Shown in pieces: positions 7,144 to 32,000 of a DNA stretch of 32,000 nucleotides. Positions within the stretch are counted from its first letter, which is position 1. The number at the start of each line of letters is the position of its first letter. The position numbers and the translations under genes were made by a program. The notes beneath the pieces are model-generated. The model was not told where the DNA came from and searched no databases. It worked only from the letters and a program-made list of their open reading frames with translations. The stretch spans positions 21,661 through 53,660 of the forward strand of contig CAJLBR010000002.1 of NCBI GenBank assembly GCA_905204915.1, in the 5' to 3' direction. Source of the stretch: an uncultured Clostridium sp. (lineage in GTDB: Bacteria; Bacillota; Clostridia; TANB77; CAG-465).

Positions 7144-7160
7144 TGTAATTTTAATGTAAC
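7144..7160 (+). promoter_or_regulatory. WalR-type direct repeat TGTAAT-N5-TGTAAC
   Basis: Exact fit to the published WalR consensus TGTWAH-N5-TGTWAH, in the walR-like/tspO divergent intergenic region. A third TGTAAC lies at 7175..7180. Confidence 0.35.
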
Positions 7161-7244
7161 CTTATTTTAATTATTGTAACCTACTTAAAATATTTTTAAT
7201 ATATTGGTATTTTTTTCATAGAATAATATTAGGAGTGATACTAA

Positions 7245-7793: not shown

Positions 7794-9119
7794 CTACATA
7801 TCACTCATTACATATTCTTTAAATTTGTTTCCTCTATCTTCAAAATTCTTAAAGTGAGTATAGCTAGCAGCTGCTGGTGACATAGCACAAATCATACCTT
7901 TTTTAGTTATTTTTTTTGCATAAAAAGTAGCATCTTTTAAGTCATCAAAATATTTAACATTCTTCGTTGTATTTTCATCCATTAACATATTCAATATTTT
8001 TTTGCCTGTTTCATAAACGCATATTATATTTTCTACATTACACTCATTAAGATATTTAGCAAATTCCTCATATTCTATTCCTCTATCCATACCGCCTATT
8101 ATAATCGTGTTAACATTTTTTAAAGTTTCTATACACATTATTGCAGCTTCTGGAATTGTTGCAATTGAATCATTATAATATGTTACATCGTCAAAAGTAC
8201 CTACTTTTTCTAGTCTATGTGGTAATGATTTAAATTCATATGTAGTATTTGTTGCTCTTTTTAAATCAAGATTTAAAATTTTAGATATTTCTAATGCAAC
8301 CATAATATTAAATGCATTGTGTTCACCTAAAATTCCTCTTTCATGATTAAAATCAAAGAAATCATATTTTTCCTTTTGTTTAATGCTTATAGGAATTAAA
8401 TTAGATTTTAAATTAGCACTATTTATATGTTTTAAAAGAAGTTCATCATTTGCATTAAATATAGCAAAGTCTTCCTTAGTCTGATATCTTAGCACATTTA
8501 CCTTTGAATTTATATATTCTTCATAAGAATTATAATGATCAAGATGCTCTTCAAAAACATTTAATACAACTCCAATATGTGGAGAATGTTTTATGTATTG
8601 AGCTTGATGTGAAGAAATTTCTATTACTACAATATCATTTTTACTAATTTCATCTATTTCTGTAAATATTGGCTTACCTATATTACCTAAAAAGTGAACA
8701 TTTCCAGTTTGTTCTCTTATTATACTATATATAAGAGAAGAAGTTGTACTTTTACCTTTAGTTCCCGTAATACCAATTGTTAAAGAATCTGTATATTTCA
8801 AAAACATTTCTAACTGAGATGTTATTTTAGATTCAAATGAAGATATATCTACTCCCTTAAAAGAAATTCCAGGAGATTTAAAAATAATATCGTACTCATT
8901 TAAAAGTTCTAGATATTCGTGAGTTTTTATAACATTTAAATTCATATCCTCGTAATATTCTTTATTATCTTCACTTAAAATGTCTATATTTTCATCTATT
9001 ACATCTATTACAATATCACCTAAATGTTTCCTTAAAAACTCATAAGTTGATTTTCCTTCTCTTCCAAAACCCAAAATAACAATTCTTTTATTTTCTAATT
9101 CTTTTATCATCTCTTGCAT
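7794..9119 (-). CDS. murD: Mur ligase of MurD type (UDP-MurNAc-L-Ala:glutamate ligase); D- or L-Glu specificity unresolved
   Basis: N-terminal Rossmann motif VILGFGREGKS and Mur ligase P-loop GITGTKGKSTT. Its ATG directly abuts the upstream stop (TAAATG at 9117..9122). Confidence 0.8.
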   Translation of the reverse strand: MQEMIKELENKRIVILGFGREGKSTYEFLRKHLGDIVIDVIDENIDILSEDNKEYYEDMNLNVIKTHEYLELLNEYDIIFKSPGISFKGVDISSFESKITSQLEMFLKYTDSLTIGITGTKGKSTTSSLIYSIIREQTGNVHFLGNIGKPIFTEIDEISKNDIVVIEISSHQAQYIKHSPHIGVVLNVFEEHLDHYNSYEEYINSKVNVLRYQTKEDFAIFNANDELLLKHINSANLKSNLIPISIKQKEKYDFFDFNHERGILGEHNAFNIMVALEISKILNLDLKRATNTTYEFKSLPHRLEKVGTFDDVTYYNDSIATIPEAAIMCIETLKNVNTIIIGGMDRGIEYEEFAKYLNECNVENIICVYETGKKILNMLMDENTTKNVKYFDDLKDATFYAKKITKKGMICAMSPAAASYTHFKNFEDRGNKFKEYVMSDM

Positions 9120-10535
9120 TTATAGCACCTTCAATTCATTTTTTAACAACTCTTCAAATTTAGTTGGCAAATTATTATTACAATAACCTTTTAATAGTTT
9201 TTCTCTATTTTCTTCAACTACTTTTTTCACACTATCTATGTTATTATTATATTCATTATTAAAATATTCATTTAGTAAAATTGGCATAAAATCTTTATTT
9301 TTACATTTTAATATGTGTGAACACAAAGAATAATTTATTTCTTCATAAGTGCCAACACAGTCAAATGGTTTATTATCACCCTTACCTATAAGTTCAATAA
9401 ATGTTTGTCTTAATGATCCTTTATTAAGCAAATTTTCACCAAATATTTTTATCATTTTATCTTCATCTAAAAATTGTGATAACATTATATATACAAATAA
9501 ACACTTTGAACAATTAGCACACCATATATTTTTCTTGCTACCAACATTACAGCTTTTGAATACTGGGTGATATTTTTCATATCTAGCAAATAATGCTGTT
9601 ATTTGAAGTTCAGTAAGTGGTCTTAATAAACTAAAATATTGAGTTCCAGTCTTTAAATATGTATCTGAATAATATCTAAAATCGTTTTCAAATTCAATAC
9701 TTTTAGAATACTGATGATTTATAGTAGTTCCAACAACATTTGGTTCATTAGCGCTAGATTCATTAGATAATACAATATATTTCTTTCTTGAGATATATGC
9801 AATAAATGTAGTTAAAAAAGCAAGCATAGCAGAAAATGGAGTATGACCATTTAAGAATCCTTTTTGATTTAGTTCTAACATATTTTTATCTAGAATTCTT
9901 TCTATTATTATAGTATCATCTTCATAACCAGCTGCACTAGTGCTTTCAATAGTAGCTCCTCTAGCATTAACGATAAACGCAGTATTTTCATTTTTTAGTG
10001 TTCTTAGAACTTCCATTGTAACATTTGAGTCTTTTCCACCGCCAACTGGTATAAGTTGTCCTTTTAATTCTACAGGAGATTCTAAAGCTAAATTTTTAAA
10101 GTCTTCATTTGATTTAATTATAATAAATTCATCTTCATTAACATCGATATTGTTTATATAGAAAAATTCTCCTAAACCATTTAAATAAAGTTTTTTGAAC
10201 CATATTTTTTGATCATCGTTTAAATAACCACATTCTATAATTAATTTTTTTGAACATGTAAGTTTTAAATAACTTACAACTTCAACCATACCAATATTAA
10301 ATACCAAATTTTTAACTATATTAGAAGTTACATCAATACTTTGATCAAATCCATTTTTTCTTAAAGTATCCTTTATTTTATCAGTTGGAATTATTAGTTT
10401 AGGATTAAATGTTGAAAGTCCTACAATTTCGAATTCAAACTCTACAACAATATTTTGATTTTCTATTTCAATCTTATAATCATGATATATAAAAGTATCA
10501 TATTTTTCTCTAAATTCTTTATATTTATTATTCAT
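9120..10535 (-). CDS. PP-loop (adenine nucleotide alpha-hydrolase-like) protein; candidate MurL-type UDP-MurNAc-L-Ala-L-Glu epimerase
   Basis: PP-loop-like VGGGKDSNVT. C-terminal Cys cluster C-x10-C-x2-C-x2-C (SCNVGSKKNIWCANCSKC). Translationally coupled to the murD-type gene. Function is inferred, not demonstrated. Confidence 0.5.
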   Translation of the reverse strand: MNNKYKEFREKYDTFIYHDYKIEIENQNIVVEFEFEIVGLSTFNPKLIIPTDKIKDTLRKNGFDQSIDVTSNIVKNLVFNIGMVEVVSYLKLTCSKKLIIECGYLNDDQKIWFKKLYLNGLGEFFYINNIDVNEDEFIIIKSNEDFKNLALESPVELKGQLIPVGGGKDSNVTMEVLRTLKNENTAFIVNARGATIESTSAAGYEDDTIIIERILDKNMLELNQKGFLNGHTPFSAMLAFLTTFIAYISRKKYIVLSNESSANEPNVVGTTINHQYSKSIEFENDFRYYSDTYLKTGTQYFSLLRPLTELQITALFARYEKYHPVFKSCNVGSKKNIWCANCSKCLFVYIMLSQFLDEDKMIKIFGENLLNKGSLRQTFIELIGKGDNKPFDCVGTYEEINYSLCSHILKCKNKDFMPILLNEYFNNEYNNNIDSVKKVVEENREKLLKGYCNNNLPTKFEELLKNELKVL

Positions 10536-13301: not shown

Positions 13302-13321
13302 TACTATTCACCTCTAACAAA

Positions 13322-13406
13322 AATCACCAAACACATAGAGATTCATGCTTATTGCTGCTTCCTTCCGGACCTGACAAGATTCACACTGCTCTATCGTTTG
13401 GTGGTA
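13322..13406 (-). ncRNA. ffs: Small (4.5S-type) signal recognition particle RNA
   Basis: Minus strand contains the conserved domain IV core GUCAGGUCCGGAAGGAAGCAGC. Closing helix CCACCAAAC/GUUUGGUG. Classic Firmicute position just upstream of dnaX. Ends are approximate. Confidence 0.85.
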
Positions 13407-13451: not shown

Positions 13452-14147
13452 TTATTTAACTGAAAAAACAAAATTAGAAACTGGTAGACGTACAACACTT
13501 ATACCATTTGTTACCATATCAGAATTTGGAAGAGTAAGTTTTATATTTGAAGAATTTATCTTACCATTATCATCTATAATATTTAATTTAAATTTTACAT
13601 CAAATTTTATATCATTAACATTCATACTGTAAAATTTCAATAATCTACCATCATATGATACTTCATTAGTACCTTCTGGCAAGTTTTTATTGCTTATAAT
13701 GTTCATATTATTAATTTTTAATTCAACTAAATATTCTCCATCTTTTTCTGTTGGTATTAAGTCTGCACCATCTATACTAATATTATCAGAATATATTTCT
13801 TCATCAATATCATTATATATTGCAACGTTTCCTATATTTGCCTTTTTAATTTCTACATTATCAATGTAAACCCTTGTTGGTTTTACATCACTTACTAATA
13901 AAAGTGATAAAGTATTTACTTGGTTAGCACTTACCTTTATATCTGTAAGACTTGTAAGTTTAGCGTTTTCGTCACCATTTTCTTCTTCCTTTACATCCAA
14001 AGATGACTTTACCATTGCATCATTTACTCTAAAATTACCCTGATTAATCTTGCCTTCATTATTTAAAAGATACATGCATACAAATACTACAATCAAAGCA
14101 GCAACTATAAAAATTATTAACTTAAAAACAATATTATTTTTTTTCAT
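13452..14147 (-). CDS. Membrane-anchored extracytoplasmic protein of unknown function (231 aa)
   Basis: One N-terminal TM segment (FKLIIFIVAALIVVFVCMYLL), then a beta-rich Asn/Asp/Ile-rich domain. GAGGT RBS. Confidence 0.6.
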   Translation of the reverse strand: MKKNNIVFKLIIFIVAALIVVFVCMYLLNNEGKINQGNFRVNDAMVKSSLDVKEEENGDENAKLTSLTDIKVSANQVNTLSLLLVSDVKPTRVYIDNVEIKKANIGNVAIYNDIDEEIYSDNISIDGADLIPTEKDGEYLVELKINNMNIISNKNLPEGTNEVSYDGRLLKFYSMNVNDIKFDVKFKLNIIDDNGKINSSNIKLTLPNSDMVTNGISVVRLPVSNFVFSVK

Positions 14148-14230: not shown

Positions 14231-14258
14231 CAAAAAAGAACCTTTTACTTAAGGTTCC
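14231..14258 (-). terminator. Intrinsic terminator ending the VirD4-containing operon
   Basis: Stem GAACCTT / AAGGTTC with a 6-nt loop, then TTTTTTG on the minus strand. Confidence 0.6.
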
Positions 14259-14268
14259 TCTTATATCA

Positions 14269-16200
14269 TTAATGATTATCTGTTTCTCCAAATAATTCAT
14301 CAAATTTCTTTTCTAACTCAGCTTGAAGATCAAATTTTTCAATTTCTTGTGCTGTACCGGCACTGCTAGAAGCTGCTGGTTTTGGTTGTTCAGTTTGTTC
14401 CTTTCTGTAATTTTTAGCTTTTCTAGCTCTATCATCTAAATGCTTGTATACATCCATTGTATGTATTTCAACATCATCAGTTTTTGGCATTTGTGATATA
14501 TCGCCAATTTCATATTGTTTAGCAACATCTCTTTCTGGATGATATTTAAAATACCAAGCTTTTTTAGCTCTAATTGGTTTTAATCCTCTTACAAGTATAA
14601 TTTCATCATTAAAGTCTAATCTCTTTAATTCATCGACTGTCATAAGTTCTCTTGCTTGTTTTTGTTTACTTATTGAAACACCTTGTTTAGACATTTCATC
14701 CTTGTCTTTACTTACAGATCTGCTTTCATATTCTATTGTCTTTTGACCTAAACTCTTAGAAAAATACTCACAAGTTTTTATTGATTGGCTTCCCAAGAAA
14801 AGTTGGGTATCACAGTTACCGATAATGTTCTCATATGTGTCTTTATAAAGTCCTTCTAATTGATCCAAACTCTGTACAACAATAGATATACTAATACCCA
14901 AACTTCTAGTTGTACTAAGTTTTTTATTAAAGTCTGGAATTTGTCCAATATTTGCAAATTCATCTAGCAAGAAATATACTTGATGATGAAGTGTTCCACC
15001 ATTTCTATCAGCTTGAGTATAAAGTTTTTGTAACATTTGGCTAAAGAATATAGTTGCAATGTAATCATATGTGCTATCAGCAGCAGAAGTAATTACAAAT
15101 AATGCTGTTTTTTCTTCACCTAACTCATCAAAATCTATGTTGTTTGATGTAGTTATTCTCATCATTGGTGGTGAGTCAAAAGCACTTAGTTTAGATACTA
15201 ATGAAATTGCTATACTTTGTTTTGTTTTATCAGCACCAACTCTTATTCCTTCATATTCTTTTCTACCAGGATGGTCTGGTTTTAATTCATCAATAAATAA
15301 TTTATCAAATATTGATTCATCAGCTCCACCTTGTCTTACAATATTTAAACAACTTGATAAGTTTTGTTCTTCTGGTGGTAACACGGATATAACGTAATAA
15401 ATACATGCTTTAAGTAACATTTTGGCAGTATTATCCCAAAATGGATCTGCAGATTTTGAGCTATCTCCACTACTTCCCATAACTATTGTATGTGCTATTA
15501 TATCAACACTAGTATGATCTATAATATGAGCAAGTGGATTATATCTATCACTATACTCTGGATTTACCAAGTTTAAAGTTCTAACTTTATAACCATTAGC
15601 TTTAAGATATCCTGAAGTCTCTCTATAAAGCTCTCCTTTTGGATCTGTTATAACGTATGAACCCAATTTTTGTAAAATATTAGGCTTAATATAACATGCA
15701 GATTTACCTGCACCAGATCCACCAATTACTAAGATATTTTTATTTATCTTTACTTTTTTAAGATCTGTACCTAAGTAATGATTTTTACTTAGTATAAATC
15801 CATCTTTTCTATTTAAAATTTCGCTTCCATCTGATAGTTTTCTAAATTCTTCTCCGCCTTTACTCCATTCACTTGAACCATGTTCTTTTCCTTCGTATTC
15901 ACTTTTGCCAGCCATTTTTATCTTCCAATATATGAAAACAGCAAGACAAATTATTAAAGCCCATAATGACCATGTTAGAAATCCTCCAAAATCTTTAAAC
16001 ATTGCAGGAAATATTCCAGGAACATCCGAACTAAATGGATGAGTTAAAGCTGGTACAAAATTTTGAAAACCAGCCATCAAACCTTCAACTTTTCCAAGTT
16101 CTTTAGCTTGATAAGATGCAAACAAAGCACCAACTAGTACAATATCAAAAATAAGATATAGTACCAAAAACATAAGAATTTCTCTTTTTAAATTACTCAT
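14269..16200 (-). CDS. VirD4/TraG-family type IV secretion coupling protein (T4CP)
   Basis: Two N-terminal TM segments. Walker A VIGGSGAGKSACYIKPNIL followed by ITDPKGELY. Walker B YFLLDEFANIG. VVQSLDQLEGLY...TQLFLG block. Acidic C-terminal tail. Confidence 0.85.
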   Translation of the reverse strand: MSNLKREILMFLVLYLIFDIVLVGALFASYQAKELGKVEGLMAGFQNFVPALTHPFSSDVPGIFPAMFKDFGGFLTWSLWALIICLAVFIYWKIKMAGKSEYEGKEHGSSEWSKGGEEFRKLSDGSEILNRKDGFILSKNHYLGTDLKKVKINKNILVIGGSGAGKSACYIKPNILQKLGSYVITDPKGELYRETSGYLKANGYKVRTLNLVNPEYSDRYNPLAHIIDHTSVDIIAHTIVMGSSGDSSKSADPFWDNTAKMLLKACIYYVISVLPPEEQNLSSCLNIVRQGGADESIFDKLFIDELKPDHPGRKEYEGIRVGADKTKQSIAISLVSKLSAFDSPPMMRITTSNNIDFDELGEEKTALFVITSAADSTYDYIATIFFSQMLQKLYTQADRNGGTLHHQVYFLLDEFANIGQIPDFNKKLSTTRSLGISISIVVQSLDQLEGLYKDTYENIIGNCDTQLFLGSQSIKTCEYFSKSLGQKTIEYESRSVSKDKDEMSKQGVSISKQKQARELMTVDELKRLDFNDEIILVRGLKPIRAKKAWYFKYHPERDVAKQYEIGDISQMPKTDDVEIHTMDVYKHLDDRARKAKNYRKEQTEQPKPAASSSAGTAQEIEKFDLQAELEKKFDELFGETDNH

Positions 16201-16219
16201 ATATAACCTCTTTATAAAA

Positions 16220-16540
16220 CTATATTATTAATTCATCTCCGTCATCCATTACAGGATCTTCATTTATTTGTTCTATTTCTTTTTCTTCTCTATCTTCTTT
16301 TTCTTTATCTTCCTTTTCGTCTTTATAACTAATTTCTACATTTCCTTGAGGATTTGTTGAAATATTTTCTATATTATCCTTGTTAGCTGCAACAACCTTC
16401 TTTAATTCTTCCTCTTTAGTATCAATTGCTTTCTTTTCAGGAGTTGCTATTTGACCAACAACTAAACTTGCTTTTGACTTAGGTACTAATTCTTTTTCGT
16501 TTACCTCTGTTACCAAAGCATCTACAATTATTTTTCCCAT
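16220..16540 (-). CDS. Highly acidic, probably disordered protein (106 aa)
   Basis: AAGGAGA RBS. 15-nt and 19-nt gaps to flanking genes. Glu/Lys/Asp-rich, ending DDGDELII. Confidence 0.6.
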   Translation of the reverse strand: MGKIIVDALVTEVNEKELVPKSKASLVVGQIATPEKKAIDTKEEELKKVVAANKDNIENISTNPQGNVEISYKDEKEDKEKEDREEKEIEQINEDPVMDDGDELII

Positions 16541-16555
16541 ATATATTTCTCCTTG

Positions 16556-17077
16556 TTAATCTTCATATCTTAATTCCAAAACAATATATGCTTTGTTTGG
16601 AAGTATTTTACATCTTCCTTTTATTCCACCAGTTATAGAATCTCTATATACAACTGGTTTAATTTCTTCACCAGTTTGAGTGTCAATAATAGAAAAATGT
16701 CTTTTATAATTAGGAGTATAATCTACTTCTTTATACTCAACACCAGCTTGATTAAATATTGAACCATAAGTTAATGGCACATTTGATTGTGTTGCCTTAA
16801 ATCCAGAATCTGAAAGTTCACCTGTACTAATAATTGCTCTAGAATTAGTAAGTGTAAGTAAAACTATAAGTTGACTTTCTTCGCCCGCTTTTAAAACATT
16901 AAATGTTTTCTTTATTCTTCCAGCATCTTGAGTATCTATACTCTCTATTTTTTGTAATGATAACATTGCATTACCATTAATTTTTTCATTTTCATTCTTT
17001 TCTACTAGAAAAGCTATAGTATTCATTCCAGGCATATCAATAACATCAAATTGATTCATATCTAATAATGATTCCAT
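16556..17077 (-). CDS. Cytoplasmic protein of unknown function (173 aa)
   Basis: GAGGGGGA RBS. No signal peptide or TM segment. Embedded in the operon. Confidence 0.6.
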   Translation of the reverse strand: MESLLDMNQFDVIDMPGMNTIAFLVEKNENEKINGNAMLSLQKIESIDTQDAGRIKKTFNVLKAGEESQLIVLLTLTNSRAIISTGELSDSGFKATQSNVPLTYGSIFNQAGVEYKEVDYTPNYKRHFSIIDTQTGEEIKPVVYRDSITGGIKGRCKILPNKAYIVLELRYED

Positions 17078-17096
17078 ATTATCCCCCTCTTATTTT

Positions 17097-18749
17097 TTAA
17101 CTACCAACGTTTCCTGTTCCGCAAGTAATGATCTCTTGTTGAGCTTTGTAAGAATCTCTTGATAAAAGTCCAGAACTTACAACTTGACCATCTAATTTTT
17201 TAGTTATATATCCCTCAGAATTATAACCATTAACACCTTTACTTACTACTACATTTCTTCCTTGAGGAATATTAGCGTCATAGTTATATTTTGTTGTATA
17301 TGGAATAGTAGATGTAACACTGCTGCTTAAAATTACTTCATATTCGTTTTCTTCTTTAGTTCCATATAAACTTATATTCATAGTTCCATTCCAGCTATAA
17401 GATGTAACAATTTTAACTGGATACTGTCTAGTATTTTTGAATTTAAAATCTAAAACTCCAATGTATACAGTTGCATCTCTACTAGGTGGAACATATCCAA
17501 CAGGAAGTCCATGTTGATGTCTTTCCACAATTTCTAAATTTGCCATTAAAGCAACGTTATAAAGAGTGGATGTAGTTTGGCAAATACCTCCTCCAACTTC
17601 ATATTCTACAGTACCAGCTTTAAATACTGCCGCTGGTAAATAGCCTTTTGAAGAAGTTGTATCTCCAATAGCATTGTTATATGAAAAAGTTTCACCAGGC
17701 ATAATTACTTTACCATTCAAATATCTTAATGCTATTTCCAAATTGTTTCCTCTAGCGTAATTAGAAGCATCAAAATAAGTTGTATAGCCAGCTAATTTAT
17801 CATTATACATACTAGCTGTTATGTCAGTAAGTTTAACTTGAGGTTCTTTTACAGTAATTGGAAATTCAATTACTTTACCTTCCTCTTTATTTTCATCTAA
17901 ATTTAGAATCCTTTTTAATTCTTCTTTATCAAAATCAATTCCAGGTTCTTCTTTTACAAATTTTACTGGGTTTGATTTTTCATCAACATACGCATCTTTA
18001 GGATCTTTTTTTACTTCTTCATAAATCTTATCAACATCTATAGTATCTGGCTTTTTTACAATTGTATTAATTATCAAAGATTTTTCATCAGTTTTAAAAG
18101 TATCAATCAATGCATTTTCAACTTCTTGATAATCAATTGCATTTCCTGATTTTCCTTTTGTAATTATTAGTTTTGAAGAAGCGTCATCTAAACTATATGA
18201 ATCTTCTACAAATCTATCCTTTAAACTAAGTTCAATATTTTTTATAACTCCATCTATTTTTTCTTCATCACAAGTATAAACTGGATCAATGTCTACTTTT
18301 TTAAACTTAGCCTTAATAATATTAAAGCTATTTTTAAAGACATTAGAATCTCTACCAAAAGACAAAGCTTTATTAACAGTACTTGTTACATCAATTCCAA
18401 AATCAATTTCAGTAGATTTAACCGAATATATATTCTCAGTTCCTTGATAGATAGAAATGTCTTTTTCAGAATTTTTTTCATTGATCAGTTGAACTAGACC
18501 ATCAGTCGTATAACCCGAAACATTTTGTCCTAAAATATAAACATTTTTATAGACGTTTGAATTTACTTTATTTACACATACAAATACACTAAAAATTATT
18601 GCTAAAAATAATATTGTAGCCATGGAAATTATAACTGGTTTAGCATACTTTTTAGACATAAAGCTTTTGCCTTTTTTCTTTATATTTTCCACAGCTCCTG
18701 ATTTAACAACCTCCAATTGGTTGTTGTTTGTTTTAGTATCCTCAGACAT
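17097..18749 (-). CDS. VanW-domain cell-wall protein with N-terminal membrane anchor and C-terminal G5 domain
   Basis: TM segment PVIISMATILFLAIIFSVFVCV. VanW core GETFSYN...GGGICQTTSTLYNVA. G5-like C-terminus (VVVSKGVNGYNSEGY...). ATG 18749 is preferred (GGAGG 5 nt upstream); the ORF-track start at 18761 is GTG. Confidence 0.8.
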   Translation of the reverse strand: MSEDTKTNNNQLEVVKSGAVENIKKKGKSFMSKKYAKPVIISMATILFLAIIFSVFVCVNKVNSNVYKNVYILGQNVSGYTTDGLVQLINEKNSEKDISIYQGTENIYSVKSTEIDFGIDVTSTVNKALSFGRDSNVFKNSFNIIKAKFKKVDIDPVYTCDEEKIDGVIKNIELSLKDRFVEDSYSLDDASSKLIITKGKSGNAIDYQEVENALIDTFKTDEKSLIINTIVKKPDTIDVDKIYEEVKKDPKDAYVDEKSNPVKFVKEEPGIDFDKEELKRILNLDENKEEGKVIEFPITVKEPQVKLTDITASMYNDKLAGYTTYFDASNYARGNNLEIALRYLNGKVIMPGETFSYNNAIGDTTSSKGYLPAAVFKAGTVEYEVGGGICQTTSTLYNVALMANLEIVERHQHGLPVGYVPPSRDATVYIGVLDFKFKNTRQYPVKIVTSYSWNGTMNISLYGTKEENEYEVILSSSVTSTIPYTTKYNYDANIPQGRNVVVSKGVNGYNSEGYITKKLDGQVVSSGLLSRDSYKAQQEIITCGTGNVGS

Positions 18750-18772
18750 ACTTTCCTCCACATTACGATGTA

Positions 18773-19468
18773 TTATTTTTTTCTAATTAAAATAAGTGGT
18801 GTTAATGTTTTTGCCTGACCAGCAGGATTATCTTTTATCATAGCCTTTAAGTTTTCCTCTGTTTCATCTATTGAATCTGCTTTTCCAAGTATCTCAACAT
18901 TAAAATCATTAGCATCGACTATCATACATTTTACGCCAGTTTTTTCATAAATTTCATTACAAACTCCAGTAGAGTTTTCTGGTATTCTTATTCCAAACTC
19001 AGCATAATCTTCAAATACATCACCATAGAATCCATCAAGTCCACTTATTTCTGGACCAACAATTTCATAAAACACTCCTCTTTTTCCAAATATTTTACAA
19101 AATCCACCTGCGATTGCTGCCCATAATACTTTCGCACGACCACATATCATTATTGCAAATTGCATTTTATATGGATTATCTACGCCAACACCAGCATCAC
19201 TTTTCATGGCAAATTTAGATAAGAATTTTGCCATTTTACTTACTTTTACGTCTTTTTTATATACAACTCTTTTTTGGCATAATCCTATTATTTTTTCACT
19301 TATTGAAATAATATCCCCATCTTCGTAGATTGGTTTTACATATTTTTCAATTATATCAATGTAATTTTCACCAATTTGAACATAGTGAGTTTCAATAGCA
19401 TGTCTTTTATAAGTTTTATCTCCTACTTTAATTTCTATTTTTTTATTTGGGTTTGCTTTAAATTCCAT
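18773..19468 (-). CDS. CofE-like (F420-0:gamma-glutamyl ligase fold) protein
   Basis: Resembles the clostridial CofE-family proteins I recall: GD(I)ISISEK...CQKR, FGKRGVFYEI, and IVDANDF near the C-terminus. First gene of the operon. Confidence 0.55.
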   Translation of the reverse strand: MEFKANPNKKIEIKVGDKTYKRHAIETHYVQIGENYIDIIEKYVKPIYEDGDIISISEKIIGLCQKRVVYKKDVKVSKMAKFLSKFAMKSDAGVGVDNPYKMQFAIMICGRAKVLWAAIAGGFCKIFGKRGVFYEIVGPEISGLDGFYGDVFEDYAEFGIRIPENSTGVCNEIYEKTGVKCMIVDANDFNVEILGKADSIDETEENLKAMIKDNPAGQAKTLTPLILIRKK

Positions 19469-19500
19469 ATGAATCCTTCTTTCTTAAAATACATAAAATA

Positions 19501-19529
19501 AGTATATTATATAAATAAAAAAAAGTCAA
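19501..19529 (-). promoter_or_regulatory. Possible SigA-type promoter for the CofE-like/VanW/VirD4 operon
   Basis: Minus strand TTGACT (19529..19524), 17 nt, TATACT (19506..19501). Confidence 0.35.
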
Positions 19530-19561: not shown

Positions 19562-19593
19562 AGAAAAAAGAGAGAATGATTATCATCATCCTC
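19562..19593 (-). terminator. Intrinsic terminator of the unclassified RNA
   Basis: Minus-strand RNA GAGGAUGAU-GAUA-AUCAUUCUC forms 9 bp (one G-U) followed by UCUUUUUUCUU. The same position would be an A-C mismatch on the plus strand, which supports minus orientation. Confidence 0.65.
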
Positions 19594-19838
19594 CCTTAAT
19601 TTTGATACACCAGTACACTACCTTTTGGCAGTAACTCCGTTTTGCATTAACACACAAAACTGTATATCATATTATTCCGTGCAAAATTCAAAATCACCTG
19701 ACCTTTGATATTTAAATTTTACCAAATAATCACATAAAATCGGCGTTATGCAAAATATATGGTGGCACGGGTATATAAGTTCCTTTCGGAACATATATAA
19801 CATAAATCAAATTATTGATTTCCATTTTCTCTTTCTTT
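19562..19838 (-). ncRNA. Unclassified structured RNA candidate (~275 nt): sRNA or cis-regulatory leader
   Basis: Bounded by a perfect consensus promoter and an intrinsic terminator. No ORF of 60 aa or more. Several hand-foldable hairpins, including a GAAA-tetraloop stem at 19772..19799. Confidence 0.45.
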
Positions 19839-19844
19839 AAAAAT

Positions 19845-19873
19845 ATTATAGCAAAAACATATAGAATTGTCAA
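19845..19873 (-). promoter_or_regulatory. Perfect consensus SigA promoter
   Basis: Minus strand TTGACA (19873..19868), exactly 17 nt, TATAAT (19850..19845). Lies 14 nt downstream of the stop of the preceding gene. Confidence 0.6.
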
Positions 19874-19886
19874 CATTTTATGTTAA

Positions 19887-20198
19887 TTAGTCTACAAAAC
19901 TTGTATGTTTAACCTTCCATTTTTCTAGAGCTATACCAACCCAAAAACTATATATTCCAAGTGTAATAATGCAAAGTAAAAGCCATTTTATCCAATTTCC
20001 AAAAAGTCCTACAGCTGATCCATCAAACTTTAATCTTTTTCCATTAATTACCGTATGTTTTGTTTTCCATGAATACACCATGCAAACTGCCCACGGATAA
20101 CAGATTCCAAAAGTGCAAACTGTAACTAATCCTCCTAATATTTTCCATCCTATTAATTGTAAAAGCCCACCATCAAAATAAGATTGCCCCTCACTCAT
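19887..20198 (-). CDS. Small two/three-TM membrane protein, possibly DUF898/YjgN-like
   Basis: AAGGAG RBS. Repeated TxGI(C/Y)xxW-type motif (TFGICYPWA, TLGIYSFWV). Confidence 0.55.
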   Translation of the reverse strand: MSEGQSYFDGGLLQLIGWKILGGLVTVCTFGICYPWAVCMVYSWKTKHTVINGKRLKFDGSAVGLFGNWIKWLLLCIITLGIYSFWVGIALEKWKVKHTSFVD

Positions 20199-20284
20199 AA
20201 AATCATCTCCTTAATAAATATATACTATATTATATTTTATAGTACTAAATTTTTCAACAAATTATCTAATTATATGATTAAAAT

Positions 20285-20313
20285 AAACAAAAAAGAATCC
20301 ACAAAGTGGATTC
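20285..20313 (-). terminator. Intrinsic terminator after RNase P RNA
   Basis: Stem GAATCCAC / GTGGATTC with a 3-nt loop, then TTTTTTGTTT on the minus strand. Confidence 0.7.
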
Positions 20314-20643
20314 TTCAAGCATTTCGTAAGCCGGATTCTGTTTTAAATAGTCATTTATCTTGAACTAGTATTGCTACTAATCTCTAGCCACCAACCACGA
20401 AAGATGGCGGGCCACCTTAACCTTTCTCATCTGGTGTTGCACCGAGTGGGGTTTACACTATCCATATGTCTCCATACGGATCCGTAAGCTCTTACCTCAC
20501 GTTTTCACCCTTACCGATAAAATCGGCGGTTATTTTCTGTTGCACTTTCCTTAGGATCACTCCCACTAGACGTTATCTAGCACCCTTGCCCTATGGTGTC
20601 CGGACTTTCCTCATACCAAAGGTACGCGACTATTTGAAATACT
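20314..20643 (-). ncRNA. rnpB: RNase P RNA (M1 RNA)
   Basis: Minus strand carries GAGGAAAGUCCGGAC, ACAGAAAAUAACCGCC, GGUAAGGGUGAAA, GUAAACCCCAC and ACAGAAUCCGGCUUA universal-core motifs. P1 pairing UUCAA...UUGAA. Ends are approximate. Confidence 0.9.
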
Positions 20644-20650
20644 TATGATA

Positions 20651-20679
20651 ATTATATCACGTTTAAAACGTTATGTAAA
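20651..20679 (-). promoter_or_regulatory. SigA-type promoter for rnpB
   Basis: Minus strand TTTACA (20679..20674), 17 nt, TGATATAAT (-10 at 20656..20651). Confidence 0.55.
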
Positions 20680-20691
20680 GGATAAATGCCC

Positions 20692-20721
20692 TAAAAAAAG
20701 GCGTAGATTTTTATCTACACC
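20692..20721 (-). terminator. Intrinsic terminator after the 143-aa gene
   Basis: Minus-strand stem GGUGUAGAU / AUCUACGCC (one G-U) followed by U7. Confidence 0.6.
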
Positions 20722-20745
20722 TTGATTTTAACGTTTAAAGCGTCA

Positions 20746-21177
20746 TTATTTAACTTTACATTTCAATTTTGGCTTCTTTAACTTCTTTTCAAGTGAGTCA
20801 TAAATACGTCTTGCATATTCGCCTTTTTTATCACTTAGTGCGAGCATAACATTAAGATTGTACCTGTTATCTGTTATTACATTGCCTACATTTTTCATTT
20901 TTATGCCGTTTTTTTCACAGATTTCAACGTATTCTTTTGTTATTTCTGCATTTTTATTATATTTACTCTCTCCCGGAGAAAAGAGATCCAAAACAGAATA
21001 TGAAACACCAGATATAATAAATTCATCAAAGTACCTATACTGTACCATGAAATAAGCATTCATTTCATCTTGTACCTTAGTATCTTCAAGATAGTATCTG
21101 ATTTGGATGCCACGACTTTTTTGTATAACACAGCCTGTACCCACCTCACTCTTAAGAACTTTAAGAATTGCAAACAT
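20746..21177 (-). CDS. Hypothetical cytoplasmic protein (143 aa)
   Basis: Perfect AGGAGG RBS 8 nt upstream. Own terminator. No motif I recognise. Lys-rich C-terminus. Confidence 0.65.
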   Translation of the reverse strand: MFAILKVLKSEVGTGCVIQKSRGIQIRYYLEDTKVQDEMNAYFMVQYRYFDEFIISGVSYSVLDLFSPGESKYNKNAEITKEYVEICEKNGIKMKNVGNVITDNRYNLNVMLALSDKKGEYARRIYDSLEKKLKKPKLKCKVK

Positions 21178-21295: not shown

Positions 21296-23746
21296 TTATT
21301 CTTCGATATTTGCATCTTCTTCTGGTACTTTTGCAATATTTACAACTTTTCCACCATCAGAAGTTCTCATTAAAGTAACCCCTTGAGTATTTCTTCCAAG
21401 TACACTAATATCTTTAACATTGATTCTTATTATAACACCTGTATCAGTTATCATCATAACATCATCAGTATCTTTAACAATCTCAATTCCTATTATATGT
21501 CCAGTTTTATTAGTAGTTTTATAAGTTAAAATTCCTTTTCCACTTCTTGCTTGAGTTCTATACTCTTCTACTTCAGTTCTTTTTCCAAAACCATTTTCAG
21601 TTATAGCTAAGACATAATCATTATTTGATGTTACTGGTTCCATTCCAACAACTTTATCATCTTTTCCAAGATTTATACCTTTAACTCCCATTGAAGTTCT
21701 TCCAACAGCTCTTACCTCTTCTTCGGCAAATCTTATAGATAATCCTTCTCTTGTTACCATGATAACGTCGCTCTTTCCATCAGTAAGTCTTACATCTATT
21801 AACTCATCGTCTTCTTTTAATGTAATGCCTTGAATTCCTGACTTTCTTATATTGCTATATTCTTCTAATCTAGTTTTCTTAACAAGACCGTTTCTAGTAG
21901 CCATAAGAACATAAAGTTCAGCATTATAATCTTTTACTGGTATTACAGCAGCTATTTTTTCTCCTTGAGATAATTGTAATAAGTTTACAATTGCTGTTCC
22001 CTTAGCAGTTCTACTTGCTTCTGGTAGTTCATACGCTTTAAGTCTAAATGCTCTACCAGTATTAGTAAAGAACATAATATAATCATGCGTAGAAGTTATA
22101 AATAAGTGTTCTACAAAGTCTTCCTCACGAGTACTCATAGCAGTAAGACCTTTTCCACCACGTCTTTGACTTCTATATGCATCAACAGATATTCTCTTTA
22201 CATATCCAAAGTGTGTTAAAGTAACGACATTAGTTTCTTCTTTAATTAAACTTTCTATGTCGATTTCTCCTTCACCGTGTGTAATTTCTGTTTTTCTTTC
22301 ATCTCCATATTGATTTTTTAATTCAATAAGTTCATCTTTAATAATATTTTTTACAAGCTCTTCACTACCTAAAATTTCTTTTAAGTGAGCAATTAATTTT
22401 ACAAGATTATTGTATTCATCTTCAATTTTTTCTCTTTGTAGACCTTGTAGTGTTCTAAGTTTCATTTCCAAAATAGCAGTTGCTTGGATCTCAGAAAGTC
22501 CAAAAGTCTCCATAAGTCTTTGTTGTGCATTATCATAAGATTCTCTTATTACTCTTATTATTTCATCTATATGATCTAATGCAATTCTTAAACCTTCTAA
22601 AATATGTAGTCTTGCTTCTGCTTTTGCCAAATCAAATTTTGTTCTACGTACTACAACGTTCTCTCTATGTTTAATGTATTCAGCCAATATTTCATTTAGT
22701 TTTAATACCTTTGGTTGTCCATCAACTAAAGCTAACATTAACATACTTTGAGTAGCTTGAAGTTGTGTATGTTTATATAATAAATTTAAAACAACATTTG
22801 GATTAGCATCTCTTTTTAATTCAATTACAATTCTTAGTCCATCTCTATCAGATTCATCTCTTAAATCTGAAATACCTTCTATAACCTTAAGACCTACTAA
22901 TTTTGCAATATTTTCTACAAGAGCAGCTTTGTTAACTTGATATGGAATTTCTGTAACTATTATTCTATATCTTCCTCTGTTGTCTTCCTCTATTTCAGCT
23001 CTAGCTCTTAAGCATACTTTTCCTCTACCAGTTGTATAAGCTTGTTTTATTCCTTCTTTTCCAAGAATTATACCAGCAGTTGGAAAATCTGGTCCCTTAA
23101 TATAATTCATTAATTCTTCATTAGTTATATCAGGGTTATCAATTTGAGCAATAGTTCCATTAATTACTTCTGTTAAATTATGTGGAGGTATGTTACATGC
23201 CATACCAACAGCAATACCATAAGCTCCATTAATTAAAAGATATGGTAATTTTGCAGGTAAAACTGATGGCTCTTTTAATCTATCATCATAGTTTGGTACA
23301 AAATCTACTGTATCCTTATCAAGATCTGTTAACATTTCAAGTGCTATCTTTTGTAACTTTGCTTCTGTATACCTCATTGCGGCTGGTGGATCATTATCTA
23401 TTGACCCAAAGTTACCATGTCCATTTACTACAGGATATCTTAATGAAAAGTCCTGAGATAAACGTACCAAAGCATCATATATAGCAGCATCACCATGTGG
23501 GTGGTAGTTACCCATAACGTCACCAACAATACTAGCTGATTTTCTAAATGGTTTTTCTGGCCATAGTGATAATTCATTCATTACATATAAAATTCTTCTA
23601 TGTACCGGTTTTAGTCCATCTCTAACATCTGGTAAAGCACGAGATACAATTACACTCATTGCATAATCGATGTAAGATTTCTTCATTTCGTCTTCTATTT
23701 TAACTGGTACTATCTTTTGTGCATCTAAAAAATTCTGTTCATCCAT
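21296..23746 (-). CDS. gyrA: DNA gyrase subunit A
   Basis: N-terminal [31 protein letters not shown], the QRDR region, and GyrA-box QRRGGKG in the C-terminal beta-pinwheel. The GyrA-box argues against ParC. Confidence 0.95.
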
Positions 23747-26888: not shown

Positions 26889-27212
26889 TTACTTGTATAT
26901 TTCACCTTTAAATTTTTTTACATTAGAACTAACAAATATTTTTCTACTTAACATATATTTTATTATAAACATAAGTGCTTCTATAGAATTTTCTTCCTTA
27001 CAACTAATTAGTATTAAAGCTACTATTGGAATACTGGTTCCACAAAAAACACTAAATGCTGTTTCTAGTTCTATTTTTAAACTTGAAAATAACTTTATAC
27101 TTACTAAAACATAAATTAGCAAAAATAAAATTAGTCTATAATCAATTATTCCTAACCACTTATTATTTCTTTTAAAATTTAAGTAATAATAATTCTTATT
27201 TTTTATCTCCAT
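26889..27212 (-). CDS. Small two-TM membrane protein, VirB3/PrgI/TcpE-like candidate
   Basis: 107 aa with two hydrophobic helices (LILFLLIYVLVSIKLF; FCGTSIPIVALILISC) after a basic N-terminus. Starts 7 nt after the upstream stop, with GAGG overlapping it. Confidence 0.4.
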   Translation of the reverse strand: MEIKNKNYYYLNFKRNNKWLGIIDYRLILFLLIYVLVSIKLFSSLKIELETAFSVFCGTSIPIVALILISCKEENSIEALMFIIKYMLSRKIFVSSNVKKFKGEIYK

Positions 27213-27219
27213 TCATACC

Positions 27220-28056
27220 TCACAATTTTTCTTTATTTGAACTAAAAATAGATATATTGGCCATAATATGATTTACTAAATCATTCAATTTAAATATTAT
27301 ATAAATTGTGCCTAATAATATAACTTTAAATAACATACCTTTTTTATCAGTTACTGCTAAAGGAATTAATATTATAAACTTTATAAATACTTGAACAGAT
27401 AGATTGGTTATAATTAGTTTAAACCAGGTTTCAAATATGCCTCTAGTCGAGTCACTTGCTAAAAACATAAAGCTAAACGGGGCTATAAGTATCAAAAATA
27501 TTACTTTTACATATCTTACAGAAAAACTAATTAAAACATTTATTATTCCAAAAGATATCATTCCTTTTATTAATCCATCAATACTTAAAGCATCATTTTT
27601 CATCAGGTCATCAACAGATAAAATAACTTCTTTTAAATTGTTAAATGTTGCAGGTTTATTTATCATAAATTCTATTATTTTATCAACACAGTCGGTAATC
27701 ATTCCAAATAAATTTAAGATTTGTTCACAAAACCAATATCCATTTGTAACCAATATAGATATTACCAATATTTTAGTTAAATATAAAAAGATATTTTCGC
27801 ATTTACTTCCGTTGTATATGGCTATTAATTGTTTTAATATAAAACATATTGTAAATATCATTATAAGACTTCTTGCTAATGTCTGTATTAACTCTATATT
27901 ATTTATTTTTAAAATTAGTTTTAAGGGTTCCACCTTTAGTATTTTCTCATCTATACGTATTATATCATCTAATAATTTATAAACCTTATCGTCTATATTT
28001 TTTATTATTTTTTCAGATAACATATTTAAACTATTAATTATATTTTGACTTTCCAT
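27220..28056 (-). CDS. Polytopic membrane protein, VirB6/TrbL-like candidate
   Basis: 278 aa with at least 5 predicted TM segments by eye. Start overlaps the upstream stop (TAATG). Confidence 0.45.
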   Translation of the reverse strand: MESQNIINSLNMLSEKIIKNIDDKVYKLLDDIIRIDEKILKVEPLKLILKINNIELIQTLARSLIMIFTICFILKQLIAIYNGSKCENIFLYLTKILVISILVTNGYWFCEQILNLFGMITDCVDKIIEFMINKPATFNNLKEVILSVDDLMKNDALSIDGLIKGMISFGIINVLISFSVRYVKVIFLILIAPFSFMFLASDSTRGIFETWFKLIITNLSVQVFIKFIILIPLAVTDKKGMLFKVILLGTIYIIFKLNDLVNHIMANISIFSSNKEKL

Positions 28057-28376
28057 TAAATAAGACCATCTATAAATTTAATAATTAAATCAATTGACAA
28101 AACTATTGCATACCCAACTATAGCATTAACAATAACCTTTTTTCCTCTCATCATTTTTTCATCATCACCAAAGCTTAATTTCCTCATCAAAACACCAGCT
28201 GCAATAGCAATTCCCGCCACCGGAGTTGAAAGTTTTACTAAATATCCCTGTATTTTCTTAAACGCTGAATTTAATTTTGTGACTAATGTCGGATCTGTTG
28301 CACCATAAATACTACTAAAAACTAACATAGCTATTACCACTACTGTTACTACAACTATTACCTTTGTTTTATTCAT
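28056..28376 (-). CDS. VirB2/TrbC-like pilin candidate
   Basis: 106 aa with a signal-peptide-like N-terminus ending SSIYGA, then two hydrophobic helices separated by a charged loop (RKLSFGDDEKMMRGKK). GGGAGG RBS. 8-nt overlap with the upstream gene. Confidence 0.5.
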   Translation of the reverse strand: MNKTKVIVVVTVVVIAMLVFSSIYGATDPTLVTKLNSAFKKIQGYLVKLSTPVAGIAIAAGVLMRKLSFGDDEKMMRGKKVIVNAIVGYAIVLSIDLIIKFIDGLI

Positions 28377-30192: not shown

Positions 30193-30264
30193 ACAGCAAT
30201 CCACCTAAGTCTATTTTACTACTTTTCATTTTGCTTTTCAAAATATTCTACATTATATTACACA

Positions 30265-31211: not shown

Positions 31212-32000
31212 TCATATAATATTTGATATTTCAATAAACTTTTCTATTTCTAGCTCTTCTGCTCTAGCATTTTCGGAAACTCCACATTTTTGCATAAGTT
31301 CATTTAGCTCTGCCTTGTTCATATTGTTAAATTTTACACTTTCCAAAGAGTTTACCATTTTCTTTCTTCTTTGGGCAAAAGCATCATGTACTAAGTCAAA
31401 AAATAACTTTTCATTATTAACTTTATACTTTTTTTGTTTTGTCATTCTAATAACCGCAGAAGTAACGTTTGGTGCTGGTATAAAACTTTCTTTTGGAACT
31501 ATAACTTGTATACTAGATTCAGATAAGTATTTTGCCATTACAGTAAGAATTCCATAATCTTTTGATTTTGGATTTGCAACTATTCTATCTGCAACCTCTT
31601 TTTGCACCATAACAGTAATATCACTAATTCTTGAAGAATCTTGCAATAATTTAAAAACTATTGGTGTAGTAATATAATATGGAAGATTAGCTATTACTTT
31701 TACACTTTTAAATTTTAACCCGAGCTTATTTTCCACATTTTCCACTTCTTTATCTATATCTATTTTCAAAATATCTTCATTAATAATATTATAATTATCT
31801 CTTGTAGAAAATCTATCACTAAGTATCTCTAACATATTTTTATCAATTTCTACTAGTAAGGCATATTTAGCCACGTCTAATATGTATTCCGTTAGATTTC
31901 CAAGCCCCGGGCCTATTTCTATTACTAAATCTTCATTTGTAACTTCAGAAGACTCTATTATTTTATTAAGAATATTATCATCAATTAGAAAGTTTTGACC
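31212..32000 (-). CDS. rsmA: 16S rRNA (adenine1518/1519-N6)-dimethyltransferase, 5' end outside the window
   Basis: The frame stays open to position 32000. The upstream part translates GQNFLIDDNILNKII...VIEIGPGLGNLTE (SAM-binding motif). NLPYYITTP follows inside the listed ORF. Confidence 0.9.
   Translation of the reverse strand, partial: GQNFLIDDNILNKIIESSEVTNEDLVIEIGPGLGNLTEYILDVAKYALLVEIDKNMLEILSDRFSTRDNYNIINEDILKIDIDKEVENVENKLGLKFKSVKVIANLPYYITTPIVFKLLQDSSRISDITVMVQKEVADRIVANPKSKDYGILTVMAKYLSESSIQVIVPKESFIPAPNVTSAVIRMTKQKKYKVNNEKLFFDLVHDAFAQRRKKMVNSLESVKFNNMNKAELNELMQKCGVSENARAEELEIEKFIEISNII

Follow-up and report, generated by a model that had tools for sequence, protein, structure and literature searches.

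A vertically inherited VirD4-type coupling protein with constant small partners in gut Clostridia: a domesticated derivative of conjugation machinery

Coupling proteins of the VirD4 type (T4CPs) are seen as components of mobile elements or of virulence type IV secretion systems (T4SSs), and the locus described here raises the question of what such a protein does in an operon with an amide ligase homologue and a cell-wall enzyme. The locus lies in a 32,000-nt stretch of DNA, called the window below, from an uncultured Clostridium sp. (assembly GCA_905204915.1, contig CAJLBR010000002.1, positions 21,661-53,660, forward strand). Five genes follow one another on its minus strand in the 5'->3' order CofE-like ligase, VanW/G5 protein, u173, u106 and T4CP, where u173 and u106 stand for proteins of 173 and 106 amino acids (aa). 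An earlier interpretation made from the letters of the window (the sequence-only reading) regarded the joining of the T4CP with the ligase and the wall enzyme as the meaningful feature of this arrangement, and suggested recruitment of the T4CP to a cell-envelope or protein-export function. Related loci that were compared with the window are labelled by L-numbers (L001, L020, L084, etc.).

The T4CP (14269-16200, 643 aa) is intact and canonical, in agreement with its description in the sequence-only reading as a textbook VirD4/TraG protein. It scores 271.7 bits with the Pfam family T4SS-DNA_transf (PF02534, cut-off 20.1), 126 with TraG-D_C and 97 with TrwB_AAD_bind, passes the NCBIfam model NF045973 (conju_CD1115) with 429.7 bits against a cut-off of 250, and matches the PDB structure of Cag5, the VirD4 of H. 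pylori, with an E-value of 2e-14. Two N-terminal transmembrane (TM) segments (residues 8-26 and 72-90), the motifs GGSGAGKS, DPKGE, LDEFANIG and QSLDQL, and an acidic tail are all present. Examination of 32 orthologues revealed that Walker A (GGSGAGKS), Walker B (LDEF) and many other positions are invariant, and the same holds for the C-terminal motif DLQxELEKKFDELFG (14269-14340), which stands behind a variable linker and is likely a docking tail, placed like the TraM-binding tail of TraD. The protein thus shares with the CD1115-family T4CPs of the C. botulinum plasmid pCDC3875 and the C. difficile CTn-type elements, besides its score above the family cut-off, the two N-terminal TM segments, the nucleotide-binding domain, the all-alpha domain and the TraG-D_C region. 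A second T4CP copy was observed at L020 (5942-11995) in a metagenome-assembled genome (MAG) that also carries the normal module (L011); it is 65% identical to the window protein, has the same C-terminal tail (ELEKKFDEIFG) and no u173, and sits behind three small uncharacterized open reading frames (ORFs) and an 849-aa repeat protein with a C-terminus that looks amidoligase-like by eye.

Orthologues of the T4CP, searched for in one genome per species, occupy 67 species-level loci in uncultured MAGs of gut or rumen origin that carry the label Clostridia (among them Clostridium sp. CAG:465, CAG:921 and CAG:1219), with identities of 53-88% and an abrupt drop to 38% or less beyond them. The best match among 72,556 plasmids is 39.5% identical. 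The orthologues occur in three contexts of core genes, gyrA...dnaX-ybaB-recR, dnaB-tilS-ftsH and spoIID-M23-spoIIID. In the window, gyrA (21296-23746) and the RNase P RNA (20312-20645) lie on one side, and the signal recognition particle (SRP) RNA (13319-13406), dnaX, ybaB and recR on the other, and the base composition is uniform across all 32 kb. The identity of the orthologues to the window T4CP tracks that of gyrA (Spearman 0.77, n=31). No family match to a relaxase or to VirB4 was obtained in Pfam and NCBIfam scans of the larger ORFs of the window, and none, within 10 kb of the T4CP module or second cluster, in Pfam scans of the genes or ORFs at four related loci (L001, L003, L004 and L089). 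The level of identity, the core-gene flanks, the tracking of gyrA, the invariant Walker motifs and the lack of relaxase and VirB4 matches in these scans demonstrate that the T4CP is chromosomal and vertically inherited.

The T4CP module is therefore an intact chromosomal unit that has diverged together with the host chromosome in a low-GC lineage of gut Clostridia, and is a domesticated derivative of a Firmicutes conjugation system of the CD1115 family, not a mobile element. The remark of the sequence-only reading that the T4CP is not accompanied by DNA-processing genes holds, since no relaxase is found nearby and the T4CP lies outside any conjugative element. Plasmid and integrative conjugative element (ICE) members of the family differ from the window protein in several respects: their T4CPs are only 31-39% identical to it, whereas its gene is chromosomal, located among core genes and vertically inherited, and has around it no relaxase, VirB4, DUF3801 protein, SLT hydrolase or oriT context.

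Which neighbours belong to this T4CP was seen when the window proteins were compared by tblastn with all 67 loci. The genes for the CofE-like protein, VanW and u173 all stand upstream of the T4CP gene in 26 species; in another 13 there are CofE-like and u173 genes, in six VanW and u173 (plus one truncated contig), and in 16 u173 only (plus three truncated contigs). Hence a CofE-like gene is present upstream in 39 and a VanW gene in 32-33 of the 67 species, and 16-19 species, where the T4CP module sits elsewhere, have neither. The same order in 26 species-level genomes shows that the five-gene arrangement is neither unique to this genome nor a matter of chance, so the recurrence that a neighbourhood analysis was meant to look for is real; it is, however, not the conserved feature. 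The presence of the CofE-like and VanW genes varies from species to species; they are no obligate part of the module and are best seen as neighbours that share a promoter with it in some sub-lineages.

The constant neighbours of the T4CP are instead the two proteins that the sequence-only reading had called unknown, and it is here, not in the ligase and the wall enzyme, that the conserved association lies. The u173 gene (16556-17077) is directly upstream of the T4CP gene in 65 of the 67 orthologous loci; the two loci without it are the second copy L020 and L057, whose available upstream sequence is just 114 nt long. In a different lineage, a distant homologue of u173 (E 1e-34) likewise precedes a small ORF and then a T4CP. 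The identities of u173 and T4CP co-vary (rho 0.76, n=65). Between the two lies a small ORF of 44-123 aa, represented in the window by u106 (16220-16540), which encodes a charged protein with two retained features, a beta-strand-like motif at the N-terminus and, at the C-terminus, a tip in which two or three hydrophobic residues come after acidic ones. In u106 the C-terminus reads ...DDGDELII, and the small ORFs of other species end in ...GEDEPII, ...GYDDNII or ...EDEMIV.

A pattern search detected the tip in 51 of 65 loci: 32 species have it in a small ORF of its own, and in 19 the u173 homologue bears it; most of the loci without a detected tip carry variants of the type ...EDEPLIW. In 12 of these 19 species there is no small ORF, and the u173 homologue, 210-221 aa long, ends in ...GADDLIV or ...DDEMIV, which shows that a single polypeptide can comprise both u173 and the small protein. 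In the other seven the u173 homologue has 189-193 aa and ends in ...SEDSIV or ...EADEMI, and a separate tipless small ORF remains. The 210-221-aa forms and the wider distribution of the tip support the view of a single unit made of a folded domain, a charged linker and a C-terminal tip. The invariant module thus comprises u173, a small protein with an acidic-hydrophobic tip, and the T4CP, and by conserved gene order u173 and the tip protein are obligate partners of the T4CP; such neighbours are another difference from the plasmid and ICE systems, in which u173 has no counterpart.

The u173 family is small (253 clusters in one search, 105 representatives among 1.84e9 proteins in another), and u173 has no match in Pfam, NCBIfam, PHROGs, PADLOC, a PDB profile search or the plasmids. 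The protein is predicted to be cytoplasmic; its AlphaFold2 model (pLDDT 79.5) is all-beta with two beta-sandwich-like halves, and Foldseek against PDB and BFVD returned nothing significant, only a generic resemblance to tandem Ig-like beta-sandwiches (TM-score ~0.25). Two other assignments were tried and rejected: for u173, identity with DUF3801, the usual upstream neighbour of plasmid CD1115-family T4CPs (hhalign probability 0.2%), and for the locus, an origin from a defence system or phage (PADLOC gave only generic P-loop matches at E 1e-4 or weaker, and PHROGs nothing).

A second T4SS-like gene cluster is located 8.7 kb upstream of the operon on the same strand (26889-30204) and consists of four overlapping or abutting genes, followed by DnaD/DnaI; ksgA (31212-31874) is near it. 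The first gene (28369-30204) encodes A611, a divergent T4CP-family ATPase of 611 aa with two TM segments, Walker A GSIGSGKTS and Walker B FFICDEYQE. It matches TrwB_AAD_bind (47 bits), TraG-D_C (33) and T4SS-DNA_transf (28) in Pfam and SXT_TraD (45 bits) in NCBIfam, that is, T4CP families only, with no match to the VirB4-type families AAA_10, P-loop_TraG or CagE, and is 24% identical to the T4CP over 196 aa. The second gene (28056-28376), which overlaps the first by 8 nt, encodes a 106-aa homologue of VirB2-like T4SS pilins, with a signal or anchor segment and two TM segments, that passes PF18895 (T4SS_pilin) with 30.6 bits against a cut-off of 26.6; its orthologue in L089 scores 31.4 bits. 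Pilins of the VirB2 type are unusual in monoderm T4SSs but occur in the variant of Patescibacteria. The last two genes encode m278 (27220-28056), a polytopic membrane protein of 278 aa with about six TM segments, and m107 (26889-27212), a 107-aa protein with two. The picture of a T4CP without channel genes was thus incomplete: it stands as far as VirB4 is concerned, which was not found in the window, and fails in that a pilin, two membrane proteins and a second ATPase are encoded in the same window.

The cluster is syntenic in metagenomic relatives (L087-L092), where A611 is 42-55% identical, and is also seen at the edges of four T4CP loci. A more distant A611 relative (33% identity) belongs to a T4SS that resembles those of mobile genetic elements (L164) and encodes a VirB4-like protein of 798 aa. 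On pCDC3875, which has a CD1115-family T4CP, the order is T4CP, 111-aa protein, VirB6, PrgI and VirB4 (CD1110 family), and its first four positions parallel A611, pilin, m278 and m107. By gene order, m278 therefore takes the position of VirB6 in Firmicutes T4SS operons and m107 that of PrgI/VirB3. Neither has a match among Pfam, NCBIfam or PDB profiles. The profiles of VirB6, PrgI and the 111-aa protein of pCDC3875, and those of PDB, were also tried as a means of identifying m278, m107, the pilin and A611, and none was significant; the hhalign probability is 1.5% for m278 with VirB6, and m107 gives a weak co-linear match with a PrgI-family protein (E 0.0075, probability 5%).

Two known kinds of chromosomal systems resemble this set of genes. 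The Patescibacteria of the candidate phyla radiation (CPR) have a chromosomal, relaxase-less T4SS that derives from monoderm conjugation machinery and uses VirB2-like pilins of PF18895; it is located close to replication genes and ksgA, and its T4CP genes are usually encoded separately (Microb Genom 2025, PMC12102498). The window shares with it the chromosomal location, the lack of a relaxase, the PF18895 pilin, a T4CP encoded apart and the vicinity of replication genes, with ksgA, DnaD/DnaI, gyrA and dnaX all around. It differs in that the CPR system is defined by VirB4, which was not seen near the window cluster, and in that the window host belongs to gut Clostridia, has two T4CP-family ATPases and encodes u173/tip partners that are not described for CPR. 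The archaeal DNA importers Ced and Ted consist of an ATPase, a VirB2-like pilin with two TM segments, a channel protein with 6-7 and a second protein with two (Nat Commun 2023, PMC9905601). They too are chromosomal, domesticated and conjugation-derived, and their four parts match A611, pilin, m278 and m107 in number and topology; however, there is no detectable sequence similarity, the ATPase of the window is of the T4CP family and not of the VirB4/HerA-like group, and the window system is bacterial.

It is an even bet, in our judgement, that the T4CP and its u173/tip partner form a domesticated, relaxase-less translocation system of T4SS type derived from conjugation, probably together with the second cluster. 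In such a system, a membrane-anchored T4CP hexamer would use ATP to engage a dedicated client or adaptor, the u173/tip protein, which may dock via its C-terminal tip, via the invariant ELEKKFDELFG tail of the T4CP, or via both. The T4CP would then move a substrate across the membrane, either the u173/tip protein itself or DNA bound by it, and would probably act together with the products of the A611-pilin-m278-m107 cluster. The whole would be a non-conjugative, T4SS-like apparatus without a relaxase, analogous to the Patescibacteria T4SS and to Ced/Ted.

Several observations weigh against this interpretation. VirB4 is the universal T4SS ATPase, and scans of the window and of L089 found none near either cluster. 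The correspondences of m278 to VirB6 and of m107 to VirB3 come from topology and gene order, since the profile comparisons are not significant. Co-occurrence of the two clusters was checked in the sub-lineages where they lie about 10 kb apart, and no second cluster is seen within 10 kb of the T4CP module in the 16-19 species that have the module at another place. In particular, the sub-lineage with the bare module (L003 and L004) has no membrane proteins like those of the second cluster beside the T4CP, the uncharacterized neighbours there being soluble. Finally, u173 has no fold relative that Foldseek recognizes, and calling it a substrate, an adaptor or a DNA-binding protein is a guess.

A different peculiarity is observed in relatives of the window, where one extra C breaks the T4CP frame within Walker A in 16 of the 67 species (L034-L036, L042-L046, L049-L051, L053, L063, L065, L066 and L069). 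The interruption lies at about 10460-10470 in these loci, except for L036 (~3305), L051 (~10128), L053 (~9041) and L066 (~6260). The split loci read GTT GG(A/T) C GGA TCT GGT..., so that frame 0 gives VGRIWCW and a stop, whereas the window, with its uninterrupted T4CP, and 51 other loci read GGT GGA TCT. Synonymous sites around the extra C differ between species, and both flanking frames are intact. In a more distant lineage (L084) the frame is split elsewhere, at AGT C GGA CTT (~7160-7200), and at both sites frame 0 presents CGG and frame +1 GGA. CGG is absent from 91,562 codons of conserved genes in unsplit loci and from 8,850 codons of the long ORFs (>=150 aa) of the window, and occurs once in 35,944 codons of conserved genes in split loci, namely at the frameshift site itself.

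As a split at Walker A would part strand beta-1 from the P-loop, the most economical explanation appears to be a programmed +1 frameshift at an unassigned or 'hungry' CGG codon. Searches of the accessible literature on chromosomal or orphan VirD4 proteins in Clostridia, on T4SSs of TANB77 or CAG-named lineages and on frameshifting at CGG turned up no account of this system. A wider proposal, which we put forward only tentatively and with less confidence than the translocation system as such, is that a lineage of uncultured gut Clostridia has domesticated a conjugation machine as a housekeeping transport system, a bacterial counterpart of Ced/Ted and the Patescibacteria T4SS, in which a VirD4 motor would read the u173/tip signal, a VirB4-less set of channel and pilin proteins would complete the apparatus, and in one sub-lineage the synthesis of the motor would be gated by the +1 frameshift at CGG in Walker A.

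Among the rival explanations, the one that survives best, unlikely as we consider it, assigns all five genes of the operon to one pathway, in which the ligase would make or modify an amide-linked product or a protein C-terminus, VanW would remodel the wall locally, and the T4CP would export something to the envelope. The close packing of the five minus-strand genes, as originally noticed, speaks for it: the gaps are 11, 19, 15 and 19 nt in order, a single promoter-like site, TTGACT-17-TATACT (19501-19529, minus strand, a match to consensus only), precedes the CofE-like ribosome-binding site by about 30 nt, and a single intrinsic-terminator-like hairpin with a 12-bp stem and a T-run (14233-14262) closes the operon. 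No credible terminator is present inside the operon, and internal promoter-like matches (52) do not exceed those in shuffled sequence (50.1). Shine-Dalgarno-like sequences (AAGAAGGA, AGAGGGGGA, AAGGAGA and AAAGAGG) were confirmed at four of the five starts and not, as had been supposed, at all of them, since the listed GTG start of the VanW gene has none; a likelier start, as judged from the sequence, is the ATG at 18749, 12 nt farther downstream, which has GGAAGAAAG before it. The one-pathway view is also favoured by the five-gene order in 26 species together with the joint presence of the CofE-like protein, u173 and T4CP in the further 13, by the need of Gram-positive T4SSs for a peptidoglycan enzyme, seen in plasmid systems of this family as an SLT transglycosylase and an amidase, and by the paralogous T4CP of L020, which is likewise downstream of an amidoligase-like protein. 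Against these points stand the species in which the module lacks both genes (16-19), VanW (13) or the CofE-like gene (6-7), and the fact that compact genomes often co-transcribe unrelated genes.

The properties of the two enzymes themselves also bear on this view. Profile searches reproduced the domains T4SS-DNA_transf, VanW, G5, PG_binding_4 and F420_ligase in the operon, and both the 231-aa and the 554-aa proteins pass their Pfam families. The resemblance of the 231-aa protein (18773-19468, minus strand) to CofE was borne out. Its match to F420_ligase (PF01996) is just above the cut-off (28.2 bits against 25) and covers only residues 25-87, the N-terminal third, and in Foldseek searches with its AlphaFold2 model (pLDDT 69.7, residues 129-162 poorly predicted) the top five matches are all A. 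fulgidus CofE (2G9I, 2PHN and 7ULD; E 1.4e-5 to 2.1e-4, probability 1.00, TM-score ~0.45, ~15% identity), which is the only protein with structures at E <=1e-3. The structural model thus places the protein as a divergent member of the CofE fold. Unlike the A. fulgidus enzyme, it fails the CofE equivalog models TIGR01916 (17.7 bits against 180.65) and NF009809 (17.0 against 274), as well as the folate-related TIGR04132 (28.9 against 350), and the window contains no F420 biosynthesis genes (cofC, cofD or fbiC). Its orthologues are 76-92% identical in one set of comparisons, and its conservation within the lineage is extreme (77-100%); the mean is 80% against 65% for the T4CP, and its divergence does not track that of the T4CP (rho 0.25, not significant), which suggests an independent, strongly constrained role.

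The 554-aa protein (17097-18761, minus strand, predicted ATG start at 18749) has a TM segment at 43-61, followed by PG_binding_4 (55 bits), VanW (155 bits, profile positions 2-128 of 130) and G5 (48 bits). VanW domains have been shown to be LD-transpeptidases in C. difficile, as the sequence-only reading correctly stated, and the order of domains is that of Ldt4 (PNAS 2024, PMC11348318). In addition, a conserved cysteine (Cys394), the putative equivalent of C286 in Ldt4, stands in GGGICQ, with His/Asp candidates downstream in RHQHG and DATVY; the orthologues examined keep all three motifs. By its sequence the protein looks like an ordinary VanW-type LD-transpeptidase, differing from C. difficile Ldt4 in that its gene joins an operon with the T4CP module, in some species only. 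Such a housekeeping enzyme cross-links peptidoglycan and does not open it, which also argues against its acting in one pathway with the T4CP. Given that linkage to the two enzymes is not conserved, that the obligate partners are u173 and the tip protein, and that a second T4SS-like cluster is present, recruitment of the T4CP to a cell-envelope role is not indicated. The suggestion of export fares better, as a role in protein or DNA translocation is still plausible.

A second alternative, to which we give a still smaller chance, is that the T4CP is a stand-alone DNA translocase working without a T4SS channel in segregation, sporulation or DNA uptake, with the u173/tip protein as a DNA-handling partner similar to single-stranded DNA-binding protein (SSB). 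T4CPs are relatives of FtsK/SpoIIIE, and in SSB a disordered charged linker joins a folded domain to an acidic-hydrophobic tip, an architecture that the domain-linker-tip layout of u173 and the small protein resembles. The module is always found among replication, segregation or sporulation genes (gyrA, dnaX-recR, DnaD-DnaI, dnaB or spoIID-spoIIID), and no VirB4 was found nearby. However, by Foldseek u173 does not resemble an OB-fold, the T4SS pilin cluster nearby is conserved, and the proximity of replication genes may reflect a position near the origin, as has been argued for Patescibacteria (PMC12102498). A third idea is that T4CP and neighbours are a decaying ICE remnant that persists by chance and has no current function. 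In its favour are the conjugative family of the T4CP, the likeness of the second cluster to a plasmid T4SS operon that stops after its fourth gene, ahead of VirB4, and the interrupted reading frame in 16 species. It is strongly disfavoured by orthologues at 53-88% identity in 67 species with catalytic motifs invariant in 32, by divergence that tracks gyrA, stable core-gene synteny and uniform base composition, and by the nature of the interruption, one conserved extra base at an otherwise unused codon between intact frames, which is unlike the decay of a pseudogene.

Other features were noted around the operon. Downstream of it, u231 (13452-14147, minus strand) is a single-TM protein (TM at 10-28) with an extracellular domain and its own promoter-like site, TGTAGTATAAT. 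Its position between the T4CP gene and the SRP RNA and dnaX is kept in syntenic loci, with identities of 29-59%, and it has no family match in Pfam or NCBIfam; whether it is part of the T4CP system is uncertain. Just upstream of the operon promoter, the minus strand carries a perfect sigma-70 promoter, TTGACA-17-TGcTATAAT (19845-19873), followed by a structured RNA of about 270 nt (19565-19845; minimum free energy -81 kcal/mol, z = -6.95) that ends in a terminator (19597-19568) and contains no long ORF. This RNA has no Rfam match even at E <=10 and turned up only in the same species (L086). A riboswitch or leader acting as a conserved regulator of the T4CP module was rejected on these grounds, and the RNA is a candidate small RNA or species-specific leader.

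Farther upstream, between gyrA and the operon (19887-21177), an uncharacterized 143-aa protein and a 103-aa membrane protein of DUF898/DUF6693 flank the RNase P RNA; they are absent from close relatives, and in L005, an 88%-identical relative, gyrA and the CofE-like gene are only about 0.5 kb apart. DUF5711 and CvpA (Colicin_V) proteins are encoded within a few kb of the u173-T4CP module at L003 (6218-9192), where a LytR_cpsA_psr protein is added, and at L084 (10591-12420); their proximity in two distant lineages may reflect shared ancestral synteny or a functional link. Directly downstream of recR on the minus strand (7794-10535), a gene for a Mur ligase of 441 aa adjoins one for a MurL-like protein of 471 aa, which matches the NCBIfam UDP-MurNAc-L-Ala-L-Glu epimerase with 228 bits, below its cut-off of 700 bits. 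In the relative L001 a glutamate racemase gene is found at this place; the pair in the window may provide the alternative MurD2/MurL route to D-Glu in peptidoglycan.

The above analysis revises the view in which the ligase and the wall enzyme work together with the T4CP. Should the proposed translocation system be real, it would rank among the few instances in which a bacterial host outside CPR has domesticated conjugation machinery, and u173 with its tip peptide, as the likely client/adaptor pair, would offer a simple system for the study of substrate recognition by T4CPs. Similarly, the conserved frameshift at CGG, if confirmed, would provide a clear-cut case from nature of recoding at an unassigned or 'hungry' codon. 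An abundant, uncultured gut lineage is thereby flagged as one that may hold an unexplained envelope-spanning apparatus.

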